A DNA stretch of 64,000 nt from positions 8,401 through 72,400 of the forward strand of contig METM01000029.1 of NCBI GenBank assembly GCA_001772335.1, given 5' to 3'. The position numbers and the translations under genes are program-made. Below the pieces are notes generated by a model. That model had not been told where the DNA came from. It did not search any database and saw only the letters and a list, made by a program, of their open reading frames with translations. Shown here one piece after another: positions 3,058-52,884 of the stretch. The first letter of the stretch is position 1, and each line of letters starts with the position of its first letter. Source of the stretch: a candidate division WOR-1 bacterium RIFCSPHIGHO2_01_FULL_53_15 (GTDB lineage Bacteria > Margulisbacteria > WOR-1 > O2-12-FULL-45-9 > XYB2-FULL-48-7).

Positions 3058-3820
3058 GATCTGACGCGATCAGGCCGTACTCGCCTTTCTCCCTGGCGGC
3101 AAGATCGCCCGCCAGCCCATGCAAGTATACACCGGCCGAAGCGGCCTCGAAAGAGGAAAGCCCCTGCCCCGCCAACCCGGCGATCATTCCAGTCAGGACG
3201 TCGCCCACTCCACCCGACGCCATGCCGGGATTGCCGGTCGAGTTGATAAAAACTTTTCCGGCCGGATCGGCGACAACGGTTTTGTGGCCTTTAAGAACGA
3301 CCACGCAGCCGAAACGTTTTGCGGTTTCCCGCGCGACAGCGGCGCGGTTCTTCTGGATATGATCAACGCTTTTCTTTATCAAGCGGGACATCTCGCCTGG
3401 ATGCGGAGTTATGATCAGGTTTTTAATTTTTCGCATGATCTCCGGCTCATCAGCAATATTATTCAACCCGTCTGCATCAATTATGAACGTAGAACATAGG
3501 GCGTTGATCGTAGAGCGCAGGAGGGTTCGCGAAGCTTTACTGACAGTCAAACCCGGGCCGATCGCGGCCACATCCGGCTTAACATTATTAATCTTTTCAA
3601 AAGGCAAAGTTATAACTTCTGGAGTCATCGAATCGACGAAATTGACCAGGCCTTTCGGCACGGCAAGATACGTCAGTCCGGCCCCCACCCGCAAACAACC
3701 TCTTGACGCAAGCACCGCCGCGCCGGTCATTCCCGGGGAGCCGGCAATTATCAGGACCCGTCCGTAATCGCCTTTGTTCGTCTCCGGTTTTCGTTTTGGC
3801 AATTTATTAATTTTCGACAT
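3017..3820 (-). CDS. nnrD: ADP-dependent NAD(P)H-hydrate dehydratase (YjeF C-terminal domain family)
   Basis: KGDYGRVLIIAGSPGMTGAAVLA near the N-terminus and GNPGMASGGVGDVLTG near the C-terminus. Start at MSKINK (3820) is preferred; 3838 is possible. Confidence 0.8.
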   Translation of the reverse strand: MSKINKLPKRKPETNKGDYGRVLIIAGSPGMTGAAVLASRGCLRVGAGLTYLAVPKGLVNFVDSMTPEVITLPFEKINNVKPDVAAIGPGLTVSKASRTLLRSTINALCSTFIIDADGLNNIADEPEIMRKIKNLIITPHPGEMSRLIKKSVDHIQKNRAAVARETAKRFGCVVVLKGHKTVVADPAGKVFINSTGNPGMASGGVGDVLTGMIAGLAGQGLSSFEAASAGVYLHGLAGDLAAREKGEYGLIASDLVEKIPYAIQKIY

Positions 3821-4187: not shown

Positions 4188-5098
4188 TAGACGGGCGTTA
4201 TCCAGTCGGCATATTTGGGGTCGTCGCCGCGCGCGGCTTTAAAATAGATCGTTTGCAACTTCTTCGTGATCAGACCGACTTTTCCATCTTTTATCAATTT
4301 GTCGTCAACCGAGGCAATCGGCGAGATCTGCGCGCCGGTGCCGCAGAAAAAGAGCTCGTCGGCGCCGTAAAGCTCGTTCTGCTTGATCTGCCGTTCGATC
4401 GTTTTGAGACCCAGCTCATTGGCGGCCAGTTCCATGACGCAGACGCGGGTGATCCCCGGCAGGATCGTCTCCGAAAGCGGCGGTGTGATCAGCTTACCGT
4501 CCTTGACCATGAAGAGATTTTCGCCCGAGCCCTCGGCGACGGTTTTCTCGTGTGAGAGGAGGATCGCTTCGTCGAAACCCTTTTCCAGCGCTTCGGCCTT
4601 GGCCAGCGATGAATTAATGTAAGTACCGGTGATCTTGGCCCCCTGCGGCACCGACTGGGCGGAGATCCGCCACCAGTTCGAGACGCAGACGCGGATCCCT
4701 TTCGTGATGTCAAGATAAGCGCCGAACGGCGATATGAACATGCAGAAGTCATCTTCGATCCCGATGAGGCCCAGCCCGATCTTTTCCTGCGATTTGTAAT
4801 AGATCGGCCGAATATAAATATCTTCTTTGTAGCCGTTCTTTTTGGCCAGCTCAACTGTGGCAGCGCAGAGCTCATCAACGGAATATTTCATTTCGGACTT
4901 GAGGCCGAGGTTGGTCGACCGGGCCAGCCGCTCATAATGCTCCTTGAGCTTGAGGATAAAGAGCTGGTTCTTTTCGGCGTTCCAGTAGCCGCGGATCCCC
5001 TCAAACACGCCGGTGCCATAGTTAAAAGCGTGCGTCATGATCCCGATCTTGGCTTCGCTAAACGGGACTATTTTGCCTTTAAAAAACGTGTATTTCAT
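4184..5098 (-). CDS. ilvE: branched-chain amino acid aminotransferase (fold type IV PLP enzyme)
   Basis: 304 aa. VFEGIRGY, YIRP and GTGAQISP-type class IV aminotransferase motifs. Confidence 0.85.
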   Translation of the reverse strand: MKYTFFKGKIVPFSEAKIGIMTHAFNYGTGVFEGIRGYWNAEKNQLFILKLKEHYERLARSTNLGLKSEMKYSVDELCAATVELAKKNGYKEDIYIRPIYYKSQEKIGLGLIGIEDDFCMFISPFGAYLDITKGIRVCVSNWWRISAQSVPQGAKITGTYINSSLAKAEALEKGFDEAILLSHEKTVAEGSGENLFMVKDGKLITPPLSETILPGITRVCVMELAANELGLKTIERQIKQNELYGADELFFCGTGAQISPIASVDDKLIKDGKVGLITKKLQTIYFKAARGDDPKYADWITPVY

Positions 5099-7114: not shown

Positions 7115-8680
7115 TTACATCGATTCCGGAGCCGTAATTCCCAACAATTCTAACACATTGCGCAGAGTGATTCGAGAGGCGTCGACGAGCGTGAGGCGGG
7201 CGGGATTGCCTAGCACGCGGCACTTTTCGTAGAAGTGATGAAAAACGATCGCGAGTTCCTTGCCGTATTCTGTGATTCGGTGGGGATGTCGCAAAACCGC
7301 CGCCTCTTCCACTGACCGCGGCCACGCAAGGAGTCTCATCATCAGCTCTCTCTCCGCCGGTTCAGTTAGAGAGGATAAATCTTCTTGACCCTTGGTACTT
7401 GACCCTTGCCCCTCGCTCTCGGCCTTACGCAAGATGCTGCAGATCCTCGCATGCCCGTACTGGAGGTAATAGACCGGGTTGTCCATCGACTTCTTCTTGG
7501 CCAGCTCAAGGTCGAAATCCAGGTGTGAGTTGACGTCGGTGGCCGAGAAAAAGAAGCGCGTCGCGTCGGAGCCGATCTCGTCGATCACTTCCGCGAGCGA
7601 GACCATTTCACCCGTTCGCTTGCTCATGCGGATAGGCTCGTTGCCGCGGTAAAGGGTGACGAGCTGGCCGATGATTATTTCCAACCTATCGGCCGGCAGC
7701 CCCATCGCCTCGACTGCCGCTTTCAATCTCTTCACATAACCGTGATGGTCGGTCCCCCAAATATTAATGAGCCGCTCATAGCCGCGCGAGAATTTATCGA
7801 GATGATAAGCGAGATCGGCGGCGAAATATGTTGAATTGCCGTCGGCGCGGACGAGGACGCGGTTCTTGTCATCACCCATCTCCTGCGATTTAAACCAGAT
7901 CGCGCCTGCCTCGATGATCGTCTTGTGATTCTTTTCAAGGCGGGAGACCGCTTCCTTTACCTCGCCCTTGGCGTGGAGTTCGCTCTCATTAAAGAAACGA
8001 TCGAAAAGGACGCCGAGTTTGGCGAGAGTCGCTTTCTGCTCGGAAAGGATGTATTCAATGATATCCTCTTTGCTGTCGCCTTTAACTTCCTTGATATACG
8101 CGCCGCCGTAACCGTTTGCCGGGGTCGGTTTCCTCGCCCTGGCCGCCTGGACCGATTCCCAGAGCTTCTCGACCTGGTTGCCGATATTATTGACGTAGAA
8201 CTCGGTTTCGACTTTAAAACCGGCGGCCTTTAACAAGCGGGCAATCACGTCGCCGATCACCGCCCAACGGCCGTGCCCGACATGCAGCGGCCCAGTCGGA
8301 TTAGCCGAAACGTATTCGAGCAGAATTCTTTGACCCTTGCCACTTGACCCATGCCCCCAGCGCTGATCTTGCCTGATTATTTCCGGAATTGACTTTTGGG
8401 TCAGCTCATCTTTGATGAAGAAATTGATGAAGCCGGGCTTGACGATCTCGATTTTGCTGATAACTTCTTCGGCCCCGCCCATTTTGAGCTTCTCGGCGAT
8501 CTCTGCCGCCAGTTCCATGGGGTTGCGGGAAAGTTTCTTAGCGCCGGCAATGGCCAGATTGGTCGCAAAATCGCCGAATTCCTTGCGGGGAGATGGAGTT
8601 ATTTTGTAATCAAGCTGTATCTGGATACCGGCGGCTGACAGCGCTTTCTCGAGAAGCGATTCAATTGTTGACTGAAGCAT
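7115..8680 (-). CDS. argS: arginine--tRNA ligase
   Basis: 521 aa. SANPTGPLHVGHGR (HIGH region), MSKRTG (KMSK-like), C-terminal anticodon-binding domain ending YYLQYGHARICSILRKA. Confidence 0.95.
   Translation of the reverse strand: MLQSTIESLLEKALSAAGIQIQLDYKITPSPRKEFGDFATNLAIAGAKKLSRNPMELAAEIAEKLKMGGAEEVISKIEIVKPGFINFFIKDELTQKSIPEIIRQDQRWGHGSSGKGQRILLEYVSANPTGPLHVGHGRWAVIGDVIARLLKAAGFKVETEFYVNNIGNQVEKLWESVQAARARKPTPANGYGGAYIKEVKGDSKEDIIEYILSEQKATLAKLGVLFDRFFNESELHAKGEVKEAVSRLEKNHKTIIEAGAIWFKSQEMGDDKNRVLVRADGNSTYFAADLAYHLDKFSRGYERLINIWGTDHHGYVKRLKAAVEAMGLPADRLEIIIGQLVTLYRGNEPIRMSKRTGEMVSLAEVIDEIGSDATRFFFSATDVNSHLDFDLELAKKKSMDNPVYYLQYGHARICSILRKAESEGQGSSTKGQEDLSSLTEPAERELMMRLLAWPRSVEEAAVLRHPHRITEYGKELAIVFHHFYEKCRVLGNPARLTLVDASRITLRNVLELLGITAPESM
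7385..7412. repeat. heptamer cassette, TTGACCC family (copy in argS, 3' part)
   Basis: TTGACCC TTGGTAC TTGACCC TTGCCCC on the plus strand. It encodes GQGSSTKGQ in argS. Confidence 0.8.
8330..8357. repeat. heptamer cassette, TTGACCC family (copy in argS, 5' part)
   Basis: TTGACCC TTGCCAC TTGACCC ATGCCCC. It encodes GHGSSGKGQ just before the HIGH region. Confidence 0.8.
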
Positions 8681-8684
8681 ATCA

Positions 8685-8738
8685 AGAAACCGCGACGACT
8701 CGACTGAGCTCGTCGAAGTCGTTCAGTCGCAGGTTTCC
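8685..8738. repeat. GAAACCGCGAC / GTCGCAGGTTTC hairpin element, copy 2 (extended inner stem)
   Basis: Same outer arms as 5613-5642 with an extra inner stem GACTCGAC/GTCGAAGTC. It fills the ytxH-like/argS intercistronic gap: it abuts the upstream stop and ends 5 nt from the argS start. Confidence 0.6.
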
Positions 8739-8920
8739 TACCCTTCTTTTTTGCCGAATTCTTGCTTTAACTCGTCGAATTTGGCTTTGCCTTTATCCAG
8801 AGCGTCTTTAAGTTTTTCTCTCGTTTCTCCGCCTTTTGATGGCGCAAAAAGCAAACCGCCGATGAAACCGAGCAGACCGCCGAACGTCAGAACCTTCAAG
8901 AAACTCTTGATCTTACCCAC
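8738..8920 (-). CDS. YtxH-domain small membrane-anchored protein
   Basis: 60 aa. GGLLGFIGGLLFAPSKGGETREKLKD is the YtxH signature. GTG start with AGGGGGAAG SD. Confidence 0.7.
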   Translation of the reverse strand: MGKIKSFLKVLTFGGLLGFIGGLLFAPSKGGETREKLKDALDKGKAKFDELKQEFGKKEG

Positions 8921-8940
8921 TAAACTTCCCCCTTTTTAAA

Positions 8941-9008
8941 CTCACCCCCTGTTAAGTAAAGTTAACCCTCCCCCTCTCTTTTCAAGAGAGGGGGAAAGAG
9001 GGGGTGAG
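8941..9008. repeat. nested palindromic element, short form (copy A)
   Basis: Outer arms CTCACCCCCT / AGGGGGTGAG enclose the hairpin CCCCTCTCTT-ttc-AAGAGAGGGG. Arm and stem composition match the elements at 24381 and 48356. Confidence 0.7.
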
Positions 9009-9010
9009 TT

Positions 9011-9304
9011 TTATTTTTTAAACAGAACTCCAAGTCCTTTTTTCAAACCGGCCGCGAACGCTGCCAGTGTATTCTTGCCCGGTATCTTGCTGCTCATTTT
9101 CTCTTTGGCCAGTCCCGCAACGCCGGCCAGTATCGTCACGATATCAAAGAGCGAAGAAATGGCGTTGACCTTTTCCGTCACCTCTCTGACCGAACGCCTG
9201 ACGTCGATCAGGATAATGATCAATTGGACAGTCCCAACGACAAAAGCAATCAAGAGGAGGATGGCGCAAAAGATCAGGCTATTAATTAAATATGTTTGCA
9301 GCAT
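9011..9304 (-). CDS. DUF948-like membrane protein (N-terminal TM helix + coiled segment)
   Basis: 97 aa. A hydrophobic N-terminus followed by DVRRSVREVTEKVNAISSLFD is typical of DUF948/YtxG-like proteins. It sits between two YtxH genes. Confidence 0.55.
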   Translation of the reverse strand: MLQTYLINSLIFCAILLLIAFVVGTVQLIIILIDVRRSVREVTEKVNAISSLFDIVTILAGVAGLAKEKMSSKIPGKNTLAAFAAGLKKGLGVLFKK

Positions 9305-20912: not shown

Positions 20913-20985
20913 TGGAGCCGAGCGGGATCGAACCGCTGACCTCCTCGTTGCGAACGAGGCGTTCTCCCAGCTGAACTACGGCCCC
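20913..20985 (-). tRNA. tRNA-Ala (anticodon CGC)
   Basis: Minus strand reads GGGGCCGTAGTTCAGCTGGGAGAACGCCTCGTTCGCAACGAGGAGGTCAGCGGTTCGATCCCGCTCGGCTCCA. 73-nt cloverleaf with G3:U70 alanine identity pair, anticodon loop TTCGCAA and GGTTCGATCC T-arm. CCA is not encoded. Confidence 0.95.
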
Positions 20986-22194: not shown

Positions 22195-24380
<2,186 letters not shown>

Positions 24381-24503
24381 CCTCACCCGCCGGCACAAAC
24401 CGCCCCCCCTCTCTCCATTGGGAATGGAGAGGGGAAAAACAATTGTATTTCCCTTCTCCATCGCAGATGGAGAAGGGGGCAGGTTAAAAGCCGGCGGATG
24501 AGG
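24381..24503. repeat. nested palindromic element, long form (copy B)
   Basis: Outer arms CCTCACCCGCCGGC / GCCGGCGGATGAGG enclose two hairpins: CCCCTCTCTCCATT-ggg-AATGGAGAGGGG and CCCTTCTCCAT-cgcag-ATGGAGAAGGG. It fills the gap between convergent genes. Confidence 0.8.
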
Positions 24504-24504
24504 A

Positions 24505-25743
24505 TTAAAAGATTATCTTGTGGCGCCGCATCGAGATGCTCTGCAGGATGCCGACGCTCGCGAGGCCGACAAAGAGCGACGTGCCGCCGAAACTCATGAA
24601 AGGCAGAGGTATCCCCACGACCGGCAGGATGCCGATCACCATCCCCATATTGGCAAAGACGTGAAAACCCAGCATGACGGCGATACCCGAGGCCAGGAGT
24701 TTGCCGATCGTGTCCCTTGACTCTGAAGCGATGACCAGCGCCCGCCAGATCAGGAGGGCAAAGAGCGCCAGGACGGCCGCGGCGCCGAGAAAACCGAATT
24801 CTTCGGCCATGACCGAAAAAATAAAATCGGAGTGCTGTTCGGGGATGAACTGAAGCTGGGTCTGTGTCCCGTGCATAAAACCCTTCCCAAAAAAACCGCC
24901 GCCGCCCACGGCGATTATGCTCTGCAAGCTGTGATAACCGGCGCCGTACGGATCGGCCGCCGGATTAAGGAACGCCAGGATGCGCTGTCGCTGATACGCC
25001 TTCAGCATCCCCCACAGGTACGGCAGGGCGATACCCACGCCGACATTGATCCCCAGAATAAGGAGCCAATCGCGCGCTCTCGCCCGAGTGAGAAAGAGTA
25101 CCAGCGCTACGGCCAGCAAATAGACCAGCCAGAGATGGACGACCGGCCGCAGGAGGATCGAGATGATCGGCGTCACCAGAAAGATGAGAAGCCGCGGCGA
25201 GGCCTCGGCAGCCGTCAGCAGGCCGAGGAGGATCGCGAAAAAGACGAGCGCGGTGCCAAGGTCCGGCTGTTTAAAGATCAAAAGGAATGGGATGCCGACC
25301 AGCGCTAAGAGATAACCGGCCTGCCAGAAGCTCTGGATCTTTTTCCGTTCGCTGAAAAAAGCGGCCAGGGCGACGATCAGCGTCAGCTTGGAGAGCTCGG
25401 ACGGCTGGAAAGAAACAGGGCCGAGCTGCAGCCAGCGCTGGGCGCCGGCGGCGCTTGAACCGGTAAAGAGGATCGCGACCAAAAGAACGATCGTGAAGCC
25501 GTAGAGAAAGAGCGCGGCTTTCTTTAAATGTTTATAATCAAAATAGGTGAAGAGGCAGAGCCCGGTCAGGGCGAGAAGAAGAGACATGAACTGCCGTTTG
25601 ACGAAGATAAGCGGATCAAGATCGGCCTTGATCTGCAGCTGGTAGGTCGCGCTGAAGATCGCGGTAAAACCGATAACGATCAGGGCGCCGGCCGAGAACC
25701 ACAGCCACGGGTCGGAGAGCTTGAGCATCCGGAAATTGATCAT
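24505..25743 (-). CDS. rodA: SEDS-family peptidoglycan polymerase RodA
   Basis: 412-aa polytopic ORF. QPSELSK, PEQHSDFIFS and SFGGTS motifs. It is the second SEDS paralog and lies outside the dcw cluster. Confidence 0.8.
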   Translation of the reverse strand: MINFRMLKLSDPWLWFSAGALIVIGFTAIFSATYQLQIKADLDPLIFVKRQFMSLLLALTGLCLFTYFDYKHLKKAALFLYGFTIVLLVAILFTGSSAAGAQRWLQLGPVSFQPSELSKLTLIVALAAFFSERKKIQSFWQAGYLLALVGIPFLLIFKQPDLGTALVFFAILLGLLTAAEASPRLLIFLVTPIISILLRPVVHLWLVYLLAVALVLFLTRARARDWLLILGINVGVGIALPYLWGMLKAYQRQRILAFLNPAADPYGAGYHSLQSIIAVGGGGFFGKGFMHGTQTQLQFIPEQHSDFIFSVMAEEFGFLGAAAVLALFALLIWRALVIASESRDTIGKLLASGIAVMLGFHVFANMGMVIGILPVVGIPLPFMSFGGTSLFVGLASVGILQSISMRRHKIIF

Positions 25744-33953: not shown

Positions 33954-34046
33954 TTACTCAACCCCTCCGGAACCTGCGAATAAATCTCGCGCCAGGTTAA
34001 ATCCTCTTATAAATACCGTTTTCATTCCTTAACCACATTAAGAAAA

Positions 34047-34991
34047 CTATTTAATAGTTTTCAAGAGCCTAATAAATCCGGCAGTATTAACAAAATAGTT
34101 GTTCTTATTTTGACGAAGATACCTGTAAATATCCCTCTTCGCTTTTGACATCTTATTGTCGCACGAAGCATTTATAAGCTCGTTAAACATTATCCCATCT
34201 AAAAATGCCACGTAAGAGATATTCTTGTCGGTATATTTCAAGAAGTCAACAAGCTCAACAATTTGACTATATTGTCCTCCGCCGCTACCCTTTTTATGCT
34301 TATGCTCAATAATCCAGGCGTTGGATGCTTTTTGTATATAAAAATCTGGCATTTTGCCTTGTTTGGATTTACTCCATCTAAATTTAACATTATGTTTACT
34401 GCAAATATCCCTAAAATATTTATTATCACCTCGATCAGGCAATAAATAGAATGTGTCTTTATCGAAATCATTATCGTTATTAATTCTCTTGAAACCCGCG
34501 CTTTCAACTAGCGCAGCAATCTTGCTTACGCCGGTTTTGCCAGCCCTTTTATGCGAATAGTTATCGGCTAATACTTGCAATACAATATTGGAATATCCAT
34601 GCGATAGATACATTTGATGTCTGTCATTTATATATTTATTGATTAATTCGCGCAATAAGGGCATTCTATCTTCTTCTCTCTCGCAACTCAAAGATGAATA
34701 CGGCATATCCCAAACCATTAAATACTGGGCGAAAGCTGTATAATTCATATGGCTATTGTTAAAAAGGATGGAATCAATTTCGCCCACAAGGTCGTCTTCT
34801 TGTTTTTTTGACAGTTTTCCCCGCATTGTTTGATATGAGGTAATCAAACCGATAAGACGCTCATTATTCTTAATTGGCTTATTTGTCTTGTGTGCGTCTT
34901 TTGTGATAATAATTTTCTCTTTTTTGTTAGCGTCATCAAATATGTGCTCGGTATTTTTCAGTGAATATTCGAACAATTCGATATTGTCCAT
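34047..34991 (-). CDS. putative type II restriction endonuclease (PD-(D/E)xK)
   Basis: 314 aa, AT-rich. MPDFYIQKASNAWIIEHK gives PD...x12...ExK. AGGAGGG SD lies 7 nt before the ATG. It overlaps the 3' end of the methyltransferase gene by 34 nt. Confidence 0.55.
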   Translation of the reverse strand: MDNIELFEYSLKNTEHIFDDANKKEKIIITKDAHKTNKPIKNNERLIGLITSYQTMRGKLSKKQEDDLVGEIDSILFNNSHMNYTAFAQYLMVWDMPYSSLSCEREEDRMPLLRELINKYINDRHQMYLSHGYSNIVLQVLADNYSHKRAGKTGVSKIAALVESAGFKRINNDNDFDKDTFYLLPDRGDNKYFRDICSKHNVKFRWSKSKQGKMPDFYIQKASNAWIIEHKHKKGSGGGQYSQIVELVDFLKYTDKNISYVAFLDGIMFNELINASCDNKMSKAKRDIYRYLRQNKNNYFVNTAGFIRLLKTIK

Positions 34992-35983
34992 AAAGTATCC
35001 CTCCTGTACACCTTCTCGTAAGCAATTTCAAGCATTGCTCGCGCTGTCTCATAATCTAAGCGCCTTCTTCTCCTGCCATTTTTCATGTTTCCCTTAAACG
35101 GAGACAACAATACATCTTTCGTTCTATCCCTAAAACCAAACAGCACTTTGTTGCACTCCTCGAGGAACAAATCTAATTCATTGCGATTTAATTTATTAAT
35201 ATTGATTAAAGTAATGAGCCGGGAACTTTGTTTAATGTTATTCAAATCATAATCTAATTCATCTTTTCTCATAAATTTAATCATGGAGTTGGGGTCCGTA
35301 GTATCAACTGCCCTTAAAGCGATATTCCCGGCCGAGTCATTAAACGCCATTTCAATATTTTTCGAAGGCTTGATCCTCATTTCCTCAAAGTACCTCAAAG
35401 TATTCAAGTATTCGTCGTTTTTATAAACTTTAATAGCTTTAGGATCCTTAACTCGGCCGTCGAAACAAAGCACACAAACCGGAGTTTCAGTGTCATCAAA
35501 GCAATTATCTTCAATAATCGTAATTGAGTTTAATTTATGTTTCTGCTTAAAATTACTATTAATAAACGTCTCCGGGACAATGGCAACCACGTATTTTTGC
35601 GTCTGAATCATTCTTTCCAGCGCGATCAAATAAATATCATCATATTCGGAATTAGAAAAATATCTTTCGACGCTCTGATAAACCCCCTTCCTCTTGGCGC
35701 TGTAATTAGTCAAGTATGGGGGATTGGTGATTATTATTGCATTATCAATGGTTGGGATATGCAGTAAGCTGTCGTTCTTTGCCCAATCGAGTTTTTCATC
35801 AATATCCAGCCCAATCGTTTCCTGAAAGCCAATACTGCGGGCGGCTTCCAATAAATGACCGTCACCGGCAAAAGGATCATATGCGACCGCCGCTTTCGTG
35901 CTAATAATAAATCTTTTGATATGCTCCTTCAGCCAAATATCTCTCTTGGTATTGAATTGACCGAAAATTATCTTTTTTGCCAT
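34958..35983 (-). CDS. N6-adenine DNA methyltransferase (motif I before motif IV)
   Basis: YDPFAGDGHLL (FxGxG-like SAM motif) and IIITNPPYL (NPPY catalytic motif); 341 aa; AT-rich. Confidence 0.8.
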   Translation of the reverse strand: MAKKIIFGQFNTKRDIWLKEHIKRFIISTKAAVAYDPFAGDGHLLEAARSIGFQETIGLDIDEKLDWAKNDSLLHIPTIDNAIIITNPPYLTNYSAKRKGVYQSVERYFSNSEYDDIYLIALERMIQTQKYVVAIVPETFINSNFKQKHKLNSITIIEDNCFDDTETPVCVLCFDGRVKDPKAIKVYKNDEYLNTLRYFEEMRIKPSKNIEMAFNDSAGNIALRAVDTTDPNSMIKFMRKDELDYDLNNIKQSSRLITLININKLNRNELDLFLEECNKVLFGFRDRTKDVLLSPFKGNMKNGRRRRRLDYETARAMLEIAYEKVYRRDTLWTISNCSNIH

Positions 35984-36008
35984 ACTATTTCATCTCTGTA
36001 TATTTGAT

Positions 36009-42383: not shown

Positions 42384-43193
42384 TTATATTTCTTCCGGCA
42401 ACGATTTTTTTGCCATTTTTTTGATTCGTTTTTTCGATTCTTTAATGCTTTCCGGGGCCAGCAGATGCTCCAGCATTGTACCGCCTAACTCATTAATGGT
42501 CTGGCGGACTTTTTTGCCGACATCATGATGCGCCCTATTCGCCTTATCCTGCCCAAGGATATTTTCTCTTCTTAACTTTGCCTCCGCCTGTGTGGCGCGG
42601 AAAAGATTGGCGGCCAGCTCTTCGCTCCCCATGTGGTCGAGTATCGCCTGTTTTTTCTTGAGCCGTTTTCTCGCATGGATATCCTTCTGTCGCAAGCCGC
42701 CGTAAAGACCCATGTAGCCGAAATCCTGAAAATTGGCGTAATTAATGACGCCGGCCTCTTTGGCCGCTTTTGCCAGATTTTTATTATGTTCTTTCATCTC
42801 GCCGCGCAAATGCAAGCGTTTATGATCTTCGATCTGCAATTCATGCACTTCCCGCTTTCTGGTCTGGATGGCAAAATAGGTCTGAGCCAGGGCAATTTCT
42901 TCTTTTTTGGGATCACCATTCTGGGCGATGAGATAACAGGCATAGCGGGAAAGGTCGAAATCGTCAATCGCTCGTTCTGCGTCTGAGCCGATCCGGACCA
43001 TTTTCGTGGCGCCACGAAAATGGTCTCCAACATTTTGGCCGCTATTTATGCATGATTCTTTAGCCCGTGAAATAGCGACTTCAAAGTTTTCCCAGCGCGT
43101 ATAACCGAGCGGCAACATTAAATCGCGAGCGCTCCAGTGCTCCTTACCATATTTATTGATTTTTTTAATTTGTTCAAAAACGATATCAGTCAT
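42384..43193 (-). CDS. dinD: DNA damage-inducible protein D (DinD) family
   Basis: 269 aa. HWSARDLMLPLGYTRWENFEVAISRAKESC...YACYLIAQNGDPKKEEIALAQTYFA matches DinD as recalled. Lower GC than its flanks. Confidence 0.65.
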   Translation of the reverse strand: MTDIVFEQIKKINKYGKEHWSARDLMLPLGYTRWENFEVAISRAKESCINSGQNVGDHFRGATKMVRIGSDAERAIDDFDLSRYACYLIAQNGDPKKEEIALAQTYFAIQTRKREVHELQIEDHKRLHLRGEMKEHNKNLAKAAKEAGVINYANFQDFGYMGLYGGLRQKDIHARKRLKKKQAILDHMGSEELAANLFRATQAEAKLRRENILGQDKANRAHHDVGKKVRQTINELGGTMLEHLLAPESIKESKKRIKKMAKKSLPEEI

Positions 43194-47385: not shown

Positions 47386-48350
47386 CCGGCACTTTCAATC
47401 TCCTCATAAACAATTAACTGCAGGTCTTTTATCAGGGTATTCCAATACTTGGGCGTCCCGGATTGCGGGAAGTTATTCTCAAAATCTGGTTCGGCGGACT
47501 GGACGGCCAGCCAGGCGGCATAGTGGATGAGGCGCATGCCGCGCAGAGCGGGAATTAATTTCAATCCCTGTCGGTCAAAGGGGCGAAAGGTTTCGTAACC
47601 ATCAATGAACCAGTCGAGCTCCCGCTCCGACTTCTCCACCGTATCCGGCAGTAACAGCCAGAGGTCCTGCGCCGGCGGGCTAAAACACATGTCGTCAAAA
47701 TCGACGACAAAATAACCCTCATTCGGACGAAAAATAATATTCCCCTTGTGGAAATCGCCGTGCAGGAGGATAAATTTATCTTCCTTAAACAGCGGATCGG
47801 CTTTCTGGATAAAGAGTTCGGTCGCTTTGGTTAATGATGCTTTAAAATCGGGCAGGATAAAATTTGAGCGCAGGATCAGCTCCAGATGCTGGCCGGTGGC
47901 GACCGCCGGGCGCCAGTACATCCGGGTCGAAGCGCCGTGCCTCCCGCCCACCAGATGGAGACGGCCGATCGTGCGGCCGAGGGTCTTCCAGCCCTCTTTG
48001 TCGAATTCGTCAACCGCTCTCCCCCCTTTTTTTGGGAAAAGCGCGTAACTGATGTTCTCAAAATCAAAAAGCGTCGCGCCCTCAATGGCAGTCGGCACGA
48101 TGACGGGAACCTCGCTTTCGTGAAGTTCGCTCAAAAAGCGATGCTCTTCGAGGATGATCGGCCTGGCCCAGCGGCCGGGGCGGTAAAACTTGACGATAAC
48201 CCGCTCACCCGAATCGTGTTTCTCCAATTCGTAAACCCGGTTGATGTAGCTGTTGCGCTTGAGGCAGATGTTGCTCAACTTGACCTCAACAGTTTTTTCG
48301 ACTGTCGTAAAAATATTTTCCGGCGTCAGTGATTTCCAGATGGTTTCCAT
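47382..48350 (-). CDS. srkA: SrkA/RdoA (YihE)-type stress-response Ser/Thr kinase (APH fold)
   Basis: NSYINRVYEL...VKFYRPGRWARPIILEEHRFL..., LHGDFHKGNII and VVDFDD motifs. Start at METIWK (48350) with GAGGA SD. The start at 48371 lies inside the palindromic element. Confidence 0.8.
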   Translation of the reverse strand: METIWKSLTPENIFTTVEKTVEVKLSNICLKRNSYINRVYELEKHDSGERVIVKFYRPGRWARPIILEEHRFLSELHESEVPVIVPTAIEGATLFDFENISYALFPKKGGRAVDEFDKEGWKTLGRTIGRLHLVGGRHGASTRMYWRPAVATGQHLELILRSNFILPDFKASLTKATELFIQKADPLFKEDKFILLHGDFHKGNIIFRPNEGYFVVDFDDMCFSPPAQDLWLLLPDTVEKSERELDWFIDGYETFRPFDRQGLKLIPALRGMRLIHYAAWLAVQSAEPDFENNFPQSGTPKYWNTLIKDLQLIVYEEIESAG

Positions 48351-48355
48351 TATAT

Positions 48356-48469
48356 CCTCATCCGCCGACACAAACCGGCCCCCTTCTCCCGAAGGGAGAA
48401 GGGAAATGCATTTTTGTTTTCCCCTCTCCCGGAGGGAGAGGGGGGAAGGTTTAACGCCAGCGGGTGAGG
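48356..48469. repeat. nested palindromic element, long form (copy C)
   Basis: Arms CCTCATCCGCCG / CAGCGGGTGAGG. Hairpins CCCTTCTCCC-gaa-GGGAGAAGGG and CCCCTCTCCC-gga-GGGAGAGGGG. Spacer motifs ACAAACCG and AGGTTTAA are shared with copy B. Confidence 0.8.
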
Positions 48470-48511
48470 GCTCATAGCGGATATTATATTCCTTTTCCCG
48501 GTAAACAGTAA

Positions 48512-48517
48512 TATAAT
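48512..48517 (+). promoter_or_regulatory. -10 box TATAAT 6 nt upstream of the ATG; candidate leaderless mRNA
   Basis: tataat-agaccc-ATG with no SD. Same geometry as at 23292-23306. Confidence 0.35.
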
Positions 48518-48523
48518 AGACCC

Positions 48524-48808
48524 ATGATCGAGAAAAAACACGTCGACGGCAAGAACAAGGGCGAAATATTAATATACGCCCTCTCCACCTGCGGCTGGTG
48601 CAGGAAGGCCAAAAATATCCTTAAACAGTTAGGGATCGCTTACGACTATATCGATGTCGACCTCTTGAGTGACGAGAAATCGACAAAGATCGAGAATGAA
48701 GAGGTTAAAAAATGGAACCCGGCCTGCACTTATCCAACGATTGTCATCAACAATCAACGGTCGATCAATAAATTCAACGAAGACAAGATCAGGGAACTTG
48801 GCCAATGA
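48524..48808 (+). CDS. glutaredoxin-like small thiol-disulfide protein
   Basis: 94 aa. [18 protein letters not shown] (CxxC in a glutaredoxin-fold context). 4-nt overlap with the downstream FTRc gene. Confidence 0.75.
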
Positions 48809-51490: not shown

Positions 51491-52884
51491 GATAGGACCG
51501 GTTCGCGCGCAGCTTTGGTTTCGTCCAATCTTCTGACAGGAGTATCGTGCGGAGCCGACTTCACCAGCTCCGGATCGGTCTCGCACTCTTTAGCGATCTT
51601 GATCATCGCCTCACAAAACGCGTCGAGCGTTTCCTGTGATTCACTCTCCGTCGGCTCGATCATCAGCGATTCCTCAACGATGAGGGGGAAGTAGATCGTC
51701 GGCGGGTGAAAACCATAGTCGATCAGGCGTTTGGCGATATCGAGCGCCTTGATACCGTATTTCTCCTTCTGCCATTTGGCCGAGATGACGAACTCATGCT
51801 GGCATTGCCTGTCATAAGGCAAATAATAATGTTCTTTGAGCTTGTTCATCATGTAATTGGCGTTCTCGACCGCTTTTTCCGATACTTTCTTCAGCCCCTC
51901 CGCCCCCAGCGAAAGAATATAGGCATAGGCCTTGATGATGACTCCAATGTTGCCGTGGAAGGAGTGGACTCTGCCTATGGACTTATCGTAATGCGTAACG
52001 CGTAACGCGTAATGCGAATTTTCTTTGACCACCCGGGGAATCGGCAAAAACGGCTCAAGTTTCTTGTTGACGCCGACCGGACCCGAGCCCGGGCCGCCGC
52101 CGCCGTGCGGTGTTGAAAAAGTTTTGTGGAGGTTAAAATGAGCGACATCAAAGCCGAGATCGGCCGGCCGACAGATGCCAAGGTTGGCATTGGCATTGGC
52201 GCCGTCATAATAGAGGAGGCCGCCAGATTTGTGGACGATCTCCGCGACCTCGAGAATATGCTCATCGAACAGCCCAAGCGTGTTCGGATTGGTCAGCATT
52301 AAACCGGCCGTGTCTTCTCCCACCGCTTTTTTCAGTTCATCAACATTGATATTGCCCCGGCCGTTCGACTTGATGACGACCGGCGTAAAGCCAACCATCG
52401 CAACCGACGCCGGATTTGTTCCATGCGATGAATCGGGGATCACTACCTTGACCCTTGCTGCTTGACCCATGTCCCTGTGATAAGCTTTCATCATCATCAG
52501 CGCCGTCAGCTCGCCGTGAGCTCCGGCCGCCGGCTGGAGCGTGAACGCGTCGAAACCGAAGATCGCGCACATGTATTTTTCAAAGTTATAAAGCAGTTCC
52601 AGTATCCCCTGGCTCTGCGCCGCAGCCTGCAAGGGGTGCGCGCCGGCAAAGCCGGGCAGGCGCGCGATATCCTCGTTGACCTTCGGGTTATATTTCATCG
52701 TGCAGGAGCCGAGCGGATAAAAATGTGTGTCGACCGAAAAATTCTTCTGCGAAAGCCGCGTAAAATGGCGGATAACATCAAGCTCGGTGCGCTCCGGCAA
52801 GCTCAACTCTTTTCTTAAGAGGTCCGGCGGTATCAATTCTTCAAGTTTTTCGACCGGTACGTCAAACTCTGGCAGAGAGACCAT
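51472..52884 (-). CDS. gcvPB: glycine dehydrogenase (decarboxylating) subunit 2
   Basis: 470 aa. [14 protein letters not shown] and [16 protein letters not shown] (PLP-Lys region). Confidence 0.9.
51987..52014. repeat. tandem heptamers (CGTAACG type) inside gcvPB
   Basis: CGTAATG CGTAACG CGTAACG CGTAATG. It encodes HYALRVTHY. Confidence 0.75.
52448..52475. repeat. heptamer cassette, TTGACCC family (copy in gcvPB, different reading frame)
   Basis: TTGACCC TTGCTGC TTGACCC ATGTCCC. It is read as DMGQAARVK, shifted by one nt relative to the argS/trpE copies. Confidence 0.8.

Follow-up and report, generated by a model that had tools for sequence, protein, structure and literature searches.

What are the nested palindromes that recur between the genes of an uncultured WOR-1 bacterium, and what brought them there? 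Three copies, called A, B and C, lie in the 64,000-nt stretch of contig METM01000029.1 analysed here (the window), and an initial annotation had read them as structures selected for regulation at the RNA level. We favour another explanation, with a probability of about 0.68: A, B and C would belong to a dispersed repeat of the BoxC/PIT/triplex-motif type, A as a solo unit and B and C as inverted doublets without a gene, and this insertional, selfish-type DNA would owe its spread to DUF559 nucleases. The nested palindrome is a pair of inverted units, and its 'outer arms' are their two third blocks. The elements lodge in very short spacers at gene ends and are not host regulatory RNAs.

B and C share one architecture, as first described, with arms, a spacer, two hairpins and an A/T-rich centre. 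Their 12-nt ends are CCTCAYCCGCYG / CRGCGGRTGAGG, the spacer contains AAACC, and two CCCYTCTCC/GGAGARGGG hairpins stand around the centre of each. The features are the following, bit scores being those of the unit covariance model introduced below:

24381..24503, unstranded: copy B, inverted doublet of a C-unit and a T-unit (48.8 and 58.5 bits)
24381..24434, plus strand: C-unit of B, with third block, spacer and hairpin
24435..24450, unstranded: A/T-rich centre of B, with the palindrome ACAATTGT at 24439-24446
24451..24503, read on the minus strand: T-unit of B, with hairpin, 18-nt spacer and third block
24377..24380 and 24505-24508, unstranded: TTAA flanks of B, directly left and one base right of it (the window reads TTAA, B, A, TTAA)
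48356..48470, unstranded: copy C, inverted doublet (65.1 and 70.2 bits)
48356..48403, plus strand: T-unit of C, with CCTCATCC at 48356-48363, spacer and hairpin
48421..48470, minus strand: C-unit of C, with hairpin, 17-nt spacer and third block GGGTGAGGG at 48462-48470
8938..9011, unstranded: copy A, a separate one-hairpin subfamily, with hairpin CCCCCTCTCTT-ttc-AAGAGAGGGGG at 8970-8994

In the C-unit of B, the C-rich third block CCTCACCC (24381-24388) is followed by the conserved spacer GCCGGCACAAACCG and by the hairpin CCCCCCCTCTCTCCATT-ggg-AATGGAGAGGGG (24403-24434), which includes one G.T/bulge; the T-unit carries the hairpin CCCTTCTCCATC-gca-GATGGAGAAGGG (24451-24477) and the G-rich third block GGATGAGG (24496-24503), mirror of GGAGAAGG. 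The corresponding hairpins of C are CCCTTCTCCC-gaa-GGGAGAAGGG in the T-unit (48381-48403) and CCCCTCTCCC-gga-GGGAGAGGGG in the C-unit (48421-48443). Copy A had been taken for a one-hairpin version of the same element; it does consist of a single hairpin with arms, but it forms a subfamily of its own, with a stem that differs in sequence from those of B and C and only weak matches to the B/C-unit model (E 3e-4 and 3e-3). Its G-rich mirror block AGGGGGTGAG (8999-9008) lies 4 nt downstream of the hairpin, a canonical short-loop triplex motif (AGAGAGGGGG-aaag-AGGGGGTGAG), and the complement of this block, CTCACCCCC, lies 19 nt upstream of the hairpin (8941-8949).

Each doublet, aligned with its own reverse complement, is a near-perfect palindrome. 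The two hairpins nested within outer arms, as originally drawn, are present in the sequence, but at minimum energy B and C each fold into a single long hairpin (-75 to -83 kcal/mol, z -8 to -10), so that two hairpins within an outer stem is one of two nearly equivalent folds. Within 64 kb, the arm is matched with at most one mismatch at four positions only, all in B and C; a detector of pyrimidine/purine hairpins finds five in the window, all of A, B and C; and the unit model returns the four B/C units, A weakly, and no other credible match. One further candidate (51671-51718, E 0.04) was rejected, being inside a gcvP-like coding region. At the Rfam gathering threshold no element of the window is matched, the sole match being a tRNA (20913-20985, minus strand), and relaxed thresholds give only generic long-hairpin (miRNA-precursor) matches far below threshold.

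How far does the family extend beyond the window? A half-element pattern, scanned against one genome per species (185,579 species), matched 50 loci, of which 45 lie in six metagenome-assembled genomes of Saganbacteria/Margulisiibacteriota while the other five look like chance matches (compared loci outside the window are labelled with L-numbers). Together with RodA homologs, these loci place the window in Saganbacteria (WOR-1, Margulisiibacteriota). A covariance model built from 76 aligned units found 83 strong units in ~313 kb of Saganbacteria/Margulisiibacteriota loci, and the search for further copies proposed at the outset thus yields many in related genomes, with at least 85 units in Saganbacteria/Margulisiibacteriota. 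The repeating entity of the family is a ~55-nt unit, not the doublet. Its layout is [ACAGC]CCTCAYCCGCTGRC, 3-4 nt, AACC, 2 nt, CCCCCYTCTCC-loop-GGAGARGGG, in other words the third block CCTCAYCC, the conserved spacer and the pyrimidine/purine hairpin. Units are multi-copy, intergenic and found in either orientation, as inverted doublets of 110-125 bp, as singlets (one arm, one hairpin, no partner arm), as short one-hairpin forms and, at a few loci, with a gene separating two of them. Several singlets still have part of the A-rich centre, as truncated doublets would; a sequence common to the downstream flanks of singlets was sought and none was found.

Two types of units can be distinguished. 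In the C type the arm is CCTCACCC and the hairpin CCCCTCTCC/GGAGAGGGG; in the T type they are CCTCATCC and CCCTTCTCC/GGAGAAGGG. The C or T state of the arm is linked to the CT:AG or TT:AA state of the hairpin in 78/78 units, and a doublet is nearly always made of one C-unit plus one T-unit. Hairpin pairing holds in 100% of 641 cells of the 76 aligned units, most pairs being invariant. The compensatory changes that had been noticed between copies are real and preserve structure, but they are few and confined to one position of the main stem (CG in 49 units, UA in 27) and to a short apex extension (ATC/GAT vs ATT/AAT). The arm CCTCA.CCGC is invariant in 76/76 units. Since these include singlets, in which the arm has no partner, pairing in an outer stem is not the cause of its conservation.

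Read on the opposite strand (GGGTGAGG or GGATGAGG), the arm is the mirror of the hairpin's purine arm: each G faces a G, and each A faces an A or a T. The arm-hairpin linkage fits an exchange between the G.G:C and A.A:T triads of a purine-motif triple helix. A homopyrimidine arm, a short loop and a complementary homopurine arm (8-10 bp) are present in each of the five hairpins of A, B and C, and mirror blocks are found in the three copies, GGATGAGG in B, GGGTGAGGG in C and AGGGGGTGAG in A. For the E. coli consensus of the related repeats described below, triplex formation has been demonstrated in vitro by circular dichroism and nuclear magnetic resonance (PMC4666352). A single-stranded unit can probably fold into an intrastrand purine-motif triple helix, and may do so in vivo.

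This anatomy closely resembles that of a known kind of repeat. The BoxC/PIT (potential intrastrand triplex)/TM_ECO elements of E. coli and other bacteria, reportedly described by Bergler in 1992 and by Hoyne & Maher in 2000 and 2002, are organised as CCCTCNCCC-N3-6-GGGNGAGGG-N3-GGGNGAGGG. As in the window family, a C-rich arm is followed by a G-rich arm and by a second, mirroring G-rich block, and CCCTCTCCC / GGGAGAGGG / GGGTGAGGG are literally shared. Both kinds are intergenic and multi-copy and lie in either orientation, alone or in inverted, 'palindromic' pairs, and for both, presence differs from one close relative to another. Genomes also differ in the number of such motifs, with 143 TMs in Enterobacter asburiae LF7a and none in Salmonella. 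They differ in the second loop, 3 nt in E. coli and 16-18 nt with the conserved sequence GG..GGTT....GNCAGC in B and C; in the two linked unit types, one of each per doublet, of the window family; and in its phylum, Saganbacteria/Margulisiibacteriota. Copy A agrees with the E. coli elements in its short second loop (3-4 nt), with different stem sequences.

Are these elements inserted, or are they old parts of their loci? B occupies the entire gap from the stop of an LptC/LptD_N-like gene (23304..24380, plus strand) to the stop of rodA (24505..25743, minus strand). In three relatives whose RodA orthologs are 86, 80 and 76% identical (L141-L143), rodA and the LptC-like gene converge with overlapping stops and no element between them, the empty site reading TTCTAGAGC or TTCTAAAGC, and a fourth (L144, 68% RodA identity) carries a different doublet at the same junction. 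B is an insertion. The TTAA pair around it may be a target duplication, or the duplicated pair of overlapping stop codons. The site of C is occupied in L012, where the flanks are 79% identical, with the C- and T-units in reverse order; this flipped copy is closer to others of its own genome (L004, L039) than to C of the window. Forms bearing a DUF559 gene behave likewise. A DUF559 cassette stands at the ROK-hisH junction in L006 and L052, a junction that is empty in L053, and one stands at the hisH-hisA junction in L053, which is empty in L052 and L006; the insertion at ROK-hisH has an 11-12-bp flanking duplication and left both overlapping genes intact. Gene-less and gene-bearing forms are thus gained and lost at orthologous sites. 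No consistent target-site duplication was found in the flanks of ~25 doublets; in DeMMO3_43 the inverted repeat merely extends to ACAGC...GCTGT, with no direct repeat.

These comparisons bear directly on the regulatory reading, according to which B is a bidirectional terminator and C a leader whose distal arm sequesters the Shine-Dalgarno (SD) sequence of the srkA-like gene. The contexts given for the three copies are correct: B between convergent genes, A between two small co-directional minus-strand genes (YtxH-like 8738..8920, and 9011..9304), and C between the divergent genes of an APH-family srkA-like kinase (ATG at 48350, minus strand, a start backed by the ortholog in L012) and of a glutaredoxin-like protein (48524, plus strand). 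RNA from both strands would fold very stably, hairpin pairing is kept across copies, convergent genes flank B, and the arm of C does lie where it was said to act as SD, GGATGAGG being 5 nt upstream of the ATG and the complement of the arm CCTCATCC giving GAGG. But no T-tract follows the hairpins of B or C on either strand, as an intrinsic terminator would have, and neither a terminator nor a promoter consensus was found within the elements. Doublets show no bias among tandem (7), convergent (5) and divergent (7) contexts and lie mostly 0-20 nt from the ends of open reading frames (ORFs), gene calls for both statements being crude and ORF-based. The same calls put 13 singlets inside long ORFs, many of them spurious and of high GC, and we draw no conclusion on coding singlets.

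The site of B is empty in the three close relatives, the convergent genes overlapping there, and in the flipped orthologous copy of L012 the SD of srkA is AAGGA, outside the element. An arm that serves as SD is absent from that ortholog. Conservation of the arm in partnerless singlets and the equivalence of the two strands are likewise not what an RNA element would display. The related PIT elements of E. coli reportedly showed neither promoter nor terminator activity (PMC4666352, citing Hoyne & Maher). Empty sites, the flipped copy, unbiased contexts and missing T-tracts disfavour a terminator or SD role as the reason for the elements, and selection for a regulatory RNA structure is not supported. 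We regard the regulatory reading as very unlikely, and it is the least supported of the three rival explanations considered here. Effects on neighbouring genes, such as the use of the arm as SD of srkA, are incidental; in the window genome, C may influence the translation of srkA in this way. The Gly/Glu/Arg/Pro/Ser-rich ORFs that had been called spurious (24222..24461 and 48350..48541, both on the minus strand) are indeed mechanical read-throughs of the elements.

As a separate observation, the spacer right of C (window 48470-48523; L012 3343-3418) is strongly conserved between both genomes and has a -10-like box on each strand (GGATATTATAT and TAATATAAT). If the box on the minus strand were the srkA promoter, the whole C doublet would be transcribed as a 5' leader.

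If the units spread as inserted DNA, what could move them? The gene found between units offers a candidate. To our knowledge, no role is known for DUF559 (E. coli YcjD, PDB 3HRL), a widespread family with a nuclease fold. In L006, a 133-aa ORF placed exactly between a C-unit and a T-unit encodes a PF04480/DUF559 protein (E 7e-36), whose nearest solved structure is 3HRL, an 'endonuclease-like protein'. Its junctions, where GAAAAACAA abuts ATG and AATAAA abuts ATTGT, match the centre of B, GAAAAACAATTGT (24435..24450). The same layout of unit, gene and unit is seen in L052 and L053 and at the other loci L054 and L056, and L002 and L038 contain further DUF559 ORFs or fragments adjoining units. 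In L099, a DUF559 cassette has ends identical to the termini of copy A, AAACTCACCCCC / GGGGGTGAGTTT. Beyond these loci, DUF559 homologs recovered by protein search very often have C-terminal tails, FPSPSKMEKG..., LPSPSGRGAGGEG or PPLSRLERGRG, which are translated hairpins, and four distant homologs (L057-L060) as well as E. coli ycjD have such hairpins and mirror blocks beside the gene. In one of the former (L060 200-895), the unit-flanked DUF559 ORF is fused in frame to a sequence similar to the C-terminal end of type I restriction-modification methylases; this cassette may have inserted into an hsdM-like gene.

The association also holds in an unselected test, in which the hairpin detector was applied to 80 metagenomic loci chosen by DUF559 protein similarity alone (38-58% identity). 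At least one hairpin lies within 200 nt in 75 of them, and 48 have hairpins on both sides. In the 230 nt that surround the start of the match to the protein, 84 hairpins were counted (4.7 per kb), and 69 in the 260 nt that surround its end (3.5 per kb), against 24 in 181 kb of farther flanks (0.13 per kb), a local enrichment of 26-35-fold, and no hairpin was detected inside the DUF559 ORF at these loci. These hairpins comprise 71 distinct pyrimidine arms. The flanking units are inverted at 31 loci and direct at 3. Among hairpins with an asymmetric core beside DUF559 genes (n=108), 86 are accompanied by a perfect mirror block (at least 8 nt long, no more than 30 nt away); for direct copies, taken as control, the figure is 20/108, and 18 of these 20 have a mirror as well. 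Motifs vary by lineage with the three blocks changing jointly, for instance CCTTCCCCCC/GGGGGGAAGG/GGATGGGGGG. Inverted units thus bracket DUF559 genes tightly, and in lineage-matched form, in many lineages. The constant partner of the gene seems to be the downstream T-unit: two tandem T-units follow it in some cassettes, with duplicated protein tails (homologs P0002 and P0004), and in L056 (2832-3418) a complete doublet precedes the gene and a T-unit follows it.

E. coli itself provides a parallel. There ycjD ends in such a hairpin, and a BoxC element lies ~170 nt downstream. It is an accessory gene, present in 3378/5426 complete genomes and missing from O157:H7 and ST131 genomes, in which the sapF-fabI interval differs. 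BoxC-like places number 1-27 per genome, and 1-5 in ST131, which lacks ycjD, a comparison confounded by phylogeny. Around the K-12 gene (L051, NC_000913 1351000-1351900) we also observed that a fragment of the ycjD 3' end is duplicated ~100 nt downstream, followed by BoxC (GGAGACGGTGCTGGAGAATATTC twice), and that a 16-bp perfect inverted repeat, CACCTCATTCTGACAA...TTGTCAGAATGAGGTG, upstream of ycjD overlaps the annotated GTG start.

Concerning the enzyme, a set of 22 diverse DUF559 proteins shares, without exception, the acidic and histidine residues D50, E61, D63, H67 and D74. Vsr-like nucleases are known as homing enzymes (PMC3239194, PMC1189080), and DUF559 is enriched among predicted targets of programmed inversion (PMC9881135). 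In view of the Vsr-like PD-(D/E)XK class, the invariant D/E/H residues and the homing endonucleases of Vsr fold, we infer that DUF559 would recognise the folded unit, possibly a hairpin with or without triplex that is extruded from the palindrome or exposed at the replication fork, and would nick or cleave it there. Cleavage would drive the copying or transposition of anything bearing both ends. Gene-less doublets would then multiply like miniature inverted-repeat transposable elements (MITEs), and singlets would arise by truncation, doublets and singlets alike being non-autonomous derivatives or decay products. Inversion between inverted units would explain both the flipped copy of C and the enrichment of DUF559 at programmed inversions.

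Several points weigh against this explanation. The DUF559 gene may have regulatory hairpins of its own that account for the association, or it may target doublets that were already there. Target duplications follow no common pattern, with TTAA around B, 11-12 bp at ROK-hisH and none visible at most doublets, which is a poor fit to a classical transposase. With 16-18 nt, B and C have a second loop outside the 1-6 nt of the intrastrand triplex motif (ITxF) definition, and no triplex could be detected in vivo in the case of E. coli (PMC4666352). O157:H7, without ycjD, keeps ~12 BoxC-like copies, subject to the same phylogenetic confounding, and the 64-kb window contains no DUF559 gene.

Some of these points would suit units akin to REP/REPIN, moved by another enzyme (e.g. 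a RAYT-type Y1 transposase) or by recombination, with DUF559 as a separate selfish gene of homing type that prefers to land in or beside doublets, or as a gene with lookalike regulatory hairpins. REP/BIME/REPIN elements have exactly this organisation in singlets and inverted doublets, the palindromic centre of a doublet (between ACAA and TTGT) is where the DUF559 ORF is found, L056 has gene and T-unit outside a complete doublet, target duplications are inconsistent, and some E. coli lineages keep BoxC copies without ycjD. The likeness with REP/BIME/REPIN and RAYT (PMC3333891) extends to two alternating unit types (Y and Z REPs), to a single-copy gene flanked by short palindromic units and to gene-less copies that are far more numerous. 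However, the flanked gene here encodes a Vsr-like PD-(D/E)XK nuclease and not an HUH/Y1 transposase, and no Y1-transposase gene was seen between or beside units, at loci that were searched for DUF559 only. The window units (consensus nnnCAGCCCTCACCCGCTG...) lack the REP hallmark GTAG/CTAC and carry a mirror-repeat third block. Each DUF559 lineage has its own matching three-block variant on both sides, for which co-inheritance of gene and ends is a better fit than repeated landing. We consider this alternative unlikely.

The elements can also be compared with MITEs such as Correia/Nemis, ERIC and RUP. B and C display terminal inverted repeats, a size below 300 bp and no coding capacity, and the likeness includes the length of ~115-125 bp, the long stable hairpin, insertion beside genes, presence/absence polymorphism and the existence of longer, gene-bearing relatives with the same ends. 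They differ from MITEs by the apparent lack of a target-site duplication of fixed length and by a candidate autonomous partner that encodes no known transposase; the DUF559 cassettes share their ends with the gene-less elements, and transposase-like activity of DUF559 is putative. B and C are most likely gene-less, MITE-like derivatives. The Vsr-like 'EDxHD' homing endonucleases (I-Bth0305I, PMC3239194) are comparable as small Vsr-fold nucleases on selfish DNA, free-standing genes included. Whereas the known enzymes of this type lie in introns or inteins and cut the intron-less allele, DUF559 genes are free-standing and bracketed by inverted triplex-hairpin units, of which many gene-less copies exist.

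Could the host instead maintain the elements as structural DNA, triplex or cruciform sites for recombination, plasticity or chromosome organisation, that a host DUF559 nuclease processes? More rearrangement has been found around TM_ECO loci, and an adaptive role was proposed by Holder et al. in 2015 (PMC4666352); C has kept its site between genomes of only 79% identity, and the flipping of this doublet between two genomes can be set beside the enrichment of DUF559 at predicted programmed inversions (PMC9881135). Yet presence varies among close relatives, copy numbers differ widely between lineages (also in PMC4666352), placement follows no positional logic, and the triplex has not been detected in vivo in E. 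coli (PMC4666352). Variable presence, variable copy number and the lack of positional logic fit selfish spread better than host function, and a host-maintained role has in our estimate a very slim chance.

A few observations stand apart from this argument. A perfect 20-nt palindrome, CCTGCCTGCCGGCAGGCAGG, is inserted in a unit arm (L032 ~190-215) and in a hairpin loop (L053 2945-2970), with a relative, CCTGCCCGTCCGGCAGGCGGG, in L036 (1415-1440); this appears to be another, very small insertional palindrome nested within the unit family. Short tandem heptamer-like repeats of TCATTCG or TGTCATT type occur 60-120 nt from three singlets on different contigs (L023 ~4790-4830, L034 ~3220-3260, L025 ~7300-7370). 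In the window, a 30-bp perfect palindrome without spacer, GACCATTTTCGTGGC followed by GCCACGAAAATGGTC (42996-43025), is unrelated to the family, and positions 34001-36000 form a sharp low-G+C island (0.36 vs 0.52-0.59 elsewhere) that may be of foreign origin.

Knowledge of BoxC/PIT/TM elements goes back to the early 1990s, with thousands of copies catalogued, and their main survey found no mobility function nearby and went no further than speculation on genome instability (PMC4666352). The window elements are provisionally a new long-loop, doublet-forming variant of this kind of repeat, in a phylum without earlier description, and in an uncultured phylum they are large and regular enough to reveal its anatomy. 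Unlike the literature, which reports no associated mobility gene, we find DUF559 beside the repeats. We found no paper linking BoxC/PIT to DUF559 or YcjD in a search that left most subscription journals outside, so that a prior description is possible, and within this incomplete coverage the association appears undescribed. For annotation, it explains the recurrent spurious ORFs rich in Pro, Ser, Gly, Glu and Arg and the odd C-terminal tails of DUF559 proteins, and it warns that such palindromes are not to be read as terminators or riboregulators. The physical link between DUF559 genes and units joins two open questions, the mobility of BoxC and the role of DUF559. Tentatively, and with less confidence than for the window elements, we suggest that DUF559 proteins may be the long-missing mobilising nucleases of BoxC/PIT/triplex-motif repeats across bacteria, recognising a folded DNA structure, possibly the triplex, and defining a new class of selfish elements, whose doublets and singlets without a gene would be the repeats of BoxC type. 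If true, the DUF559 reading would assign a function to a widespread domain and explain where a repeat family known since 1992 comes from.

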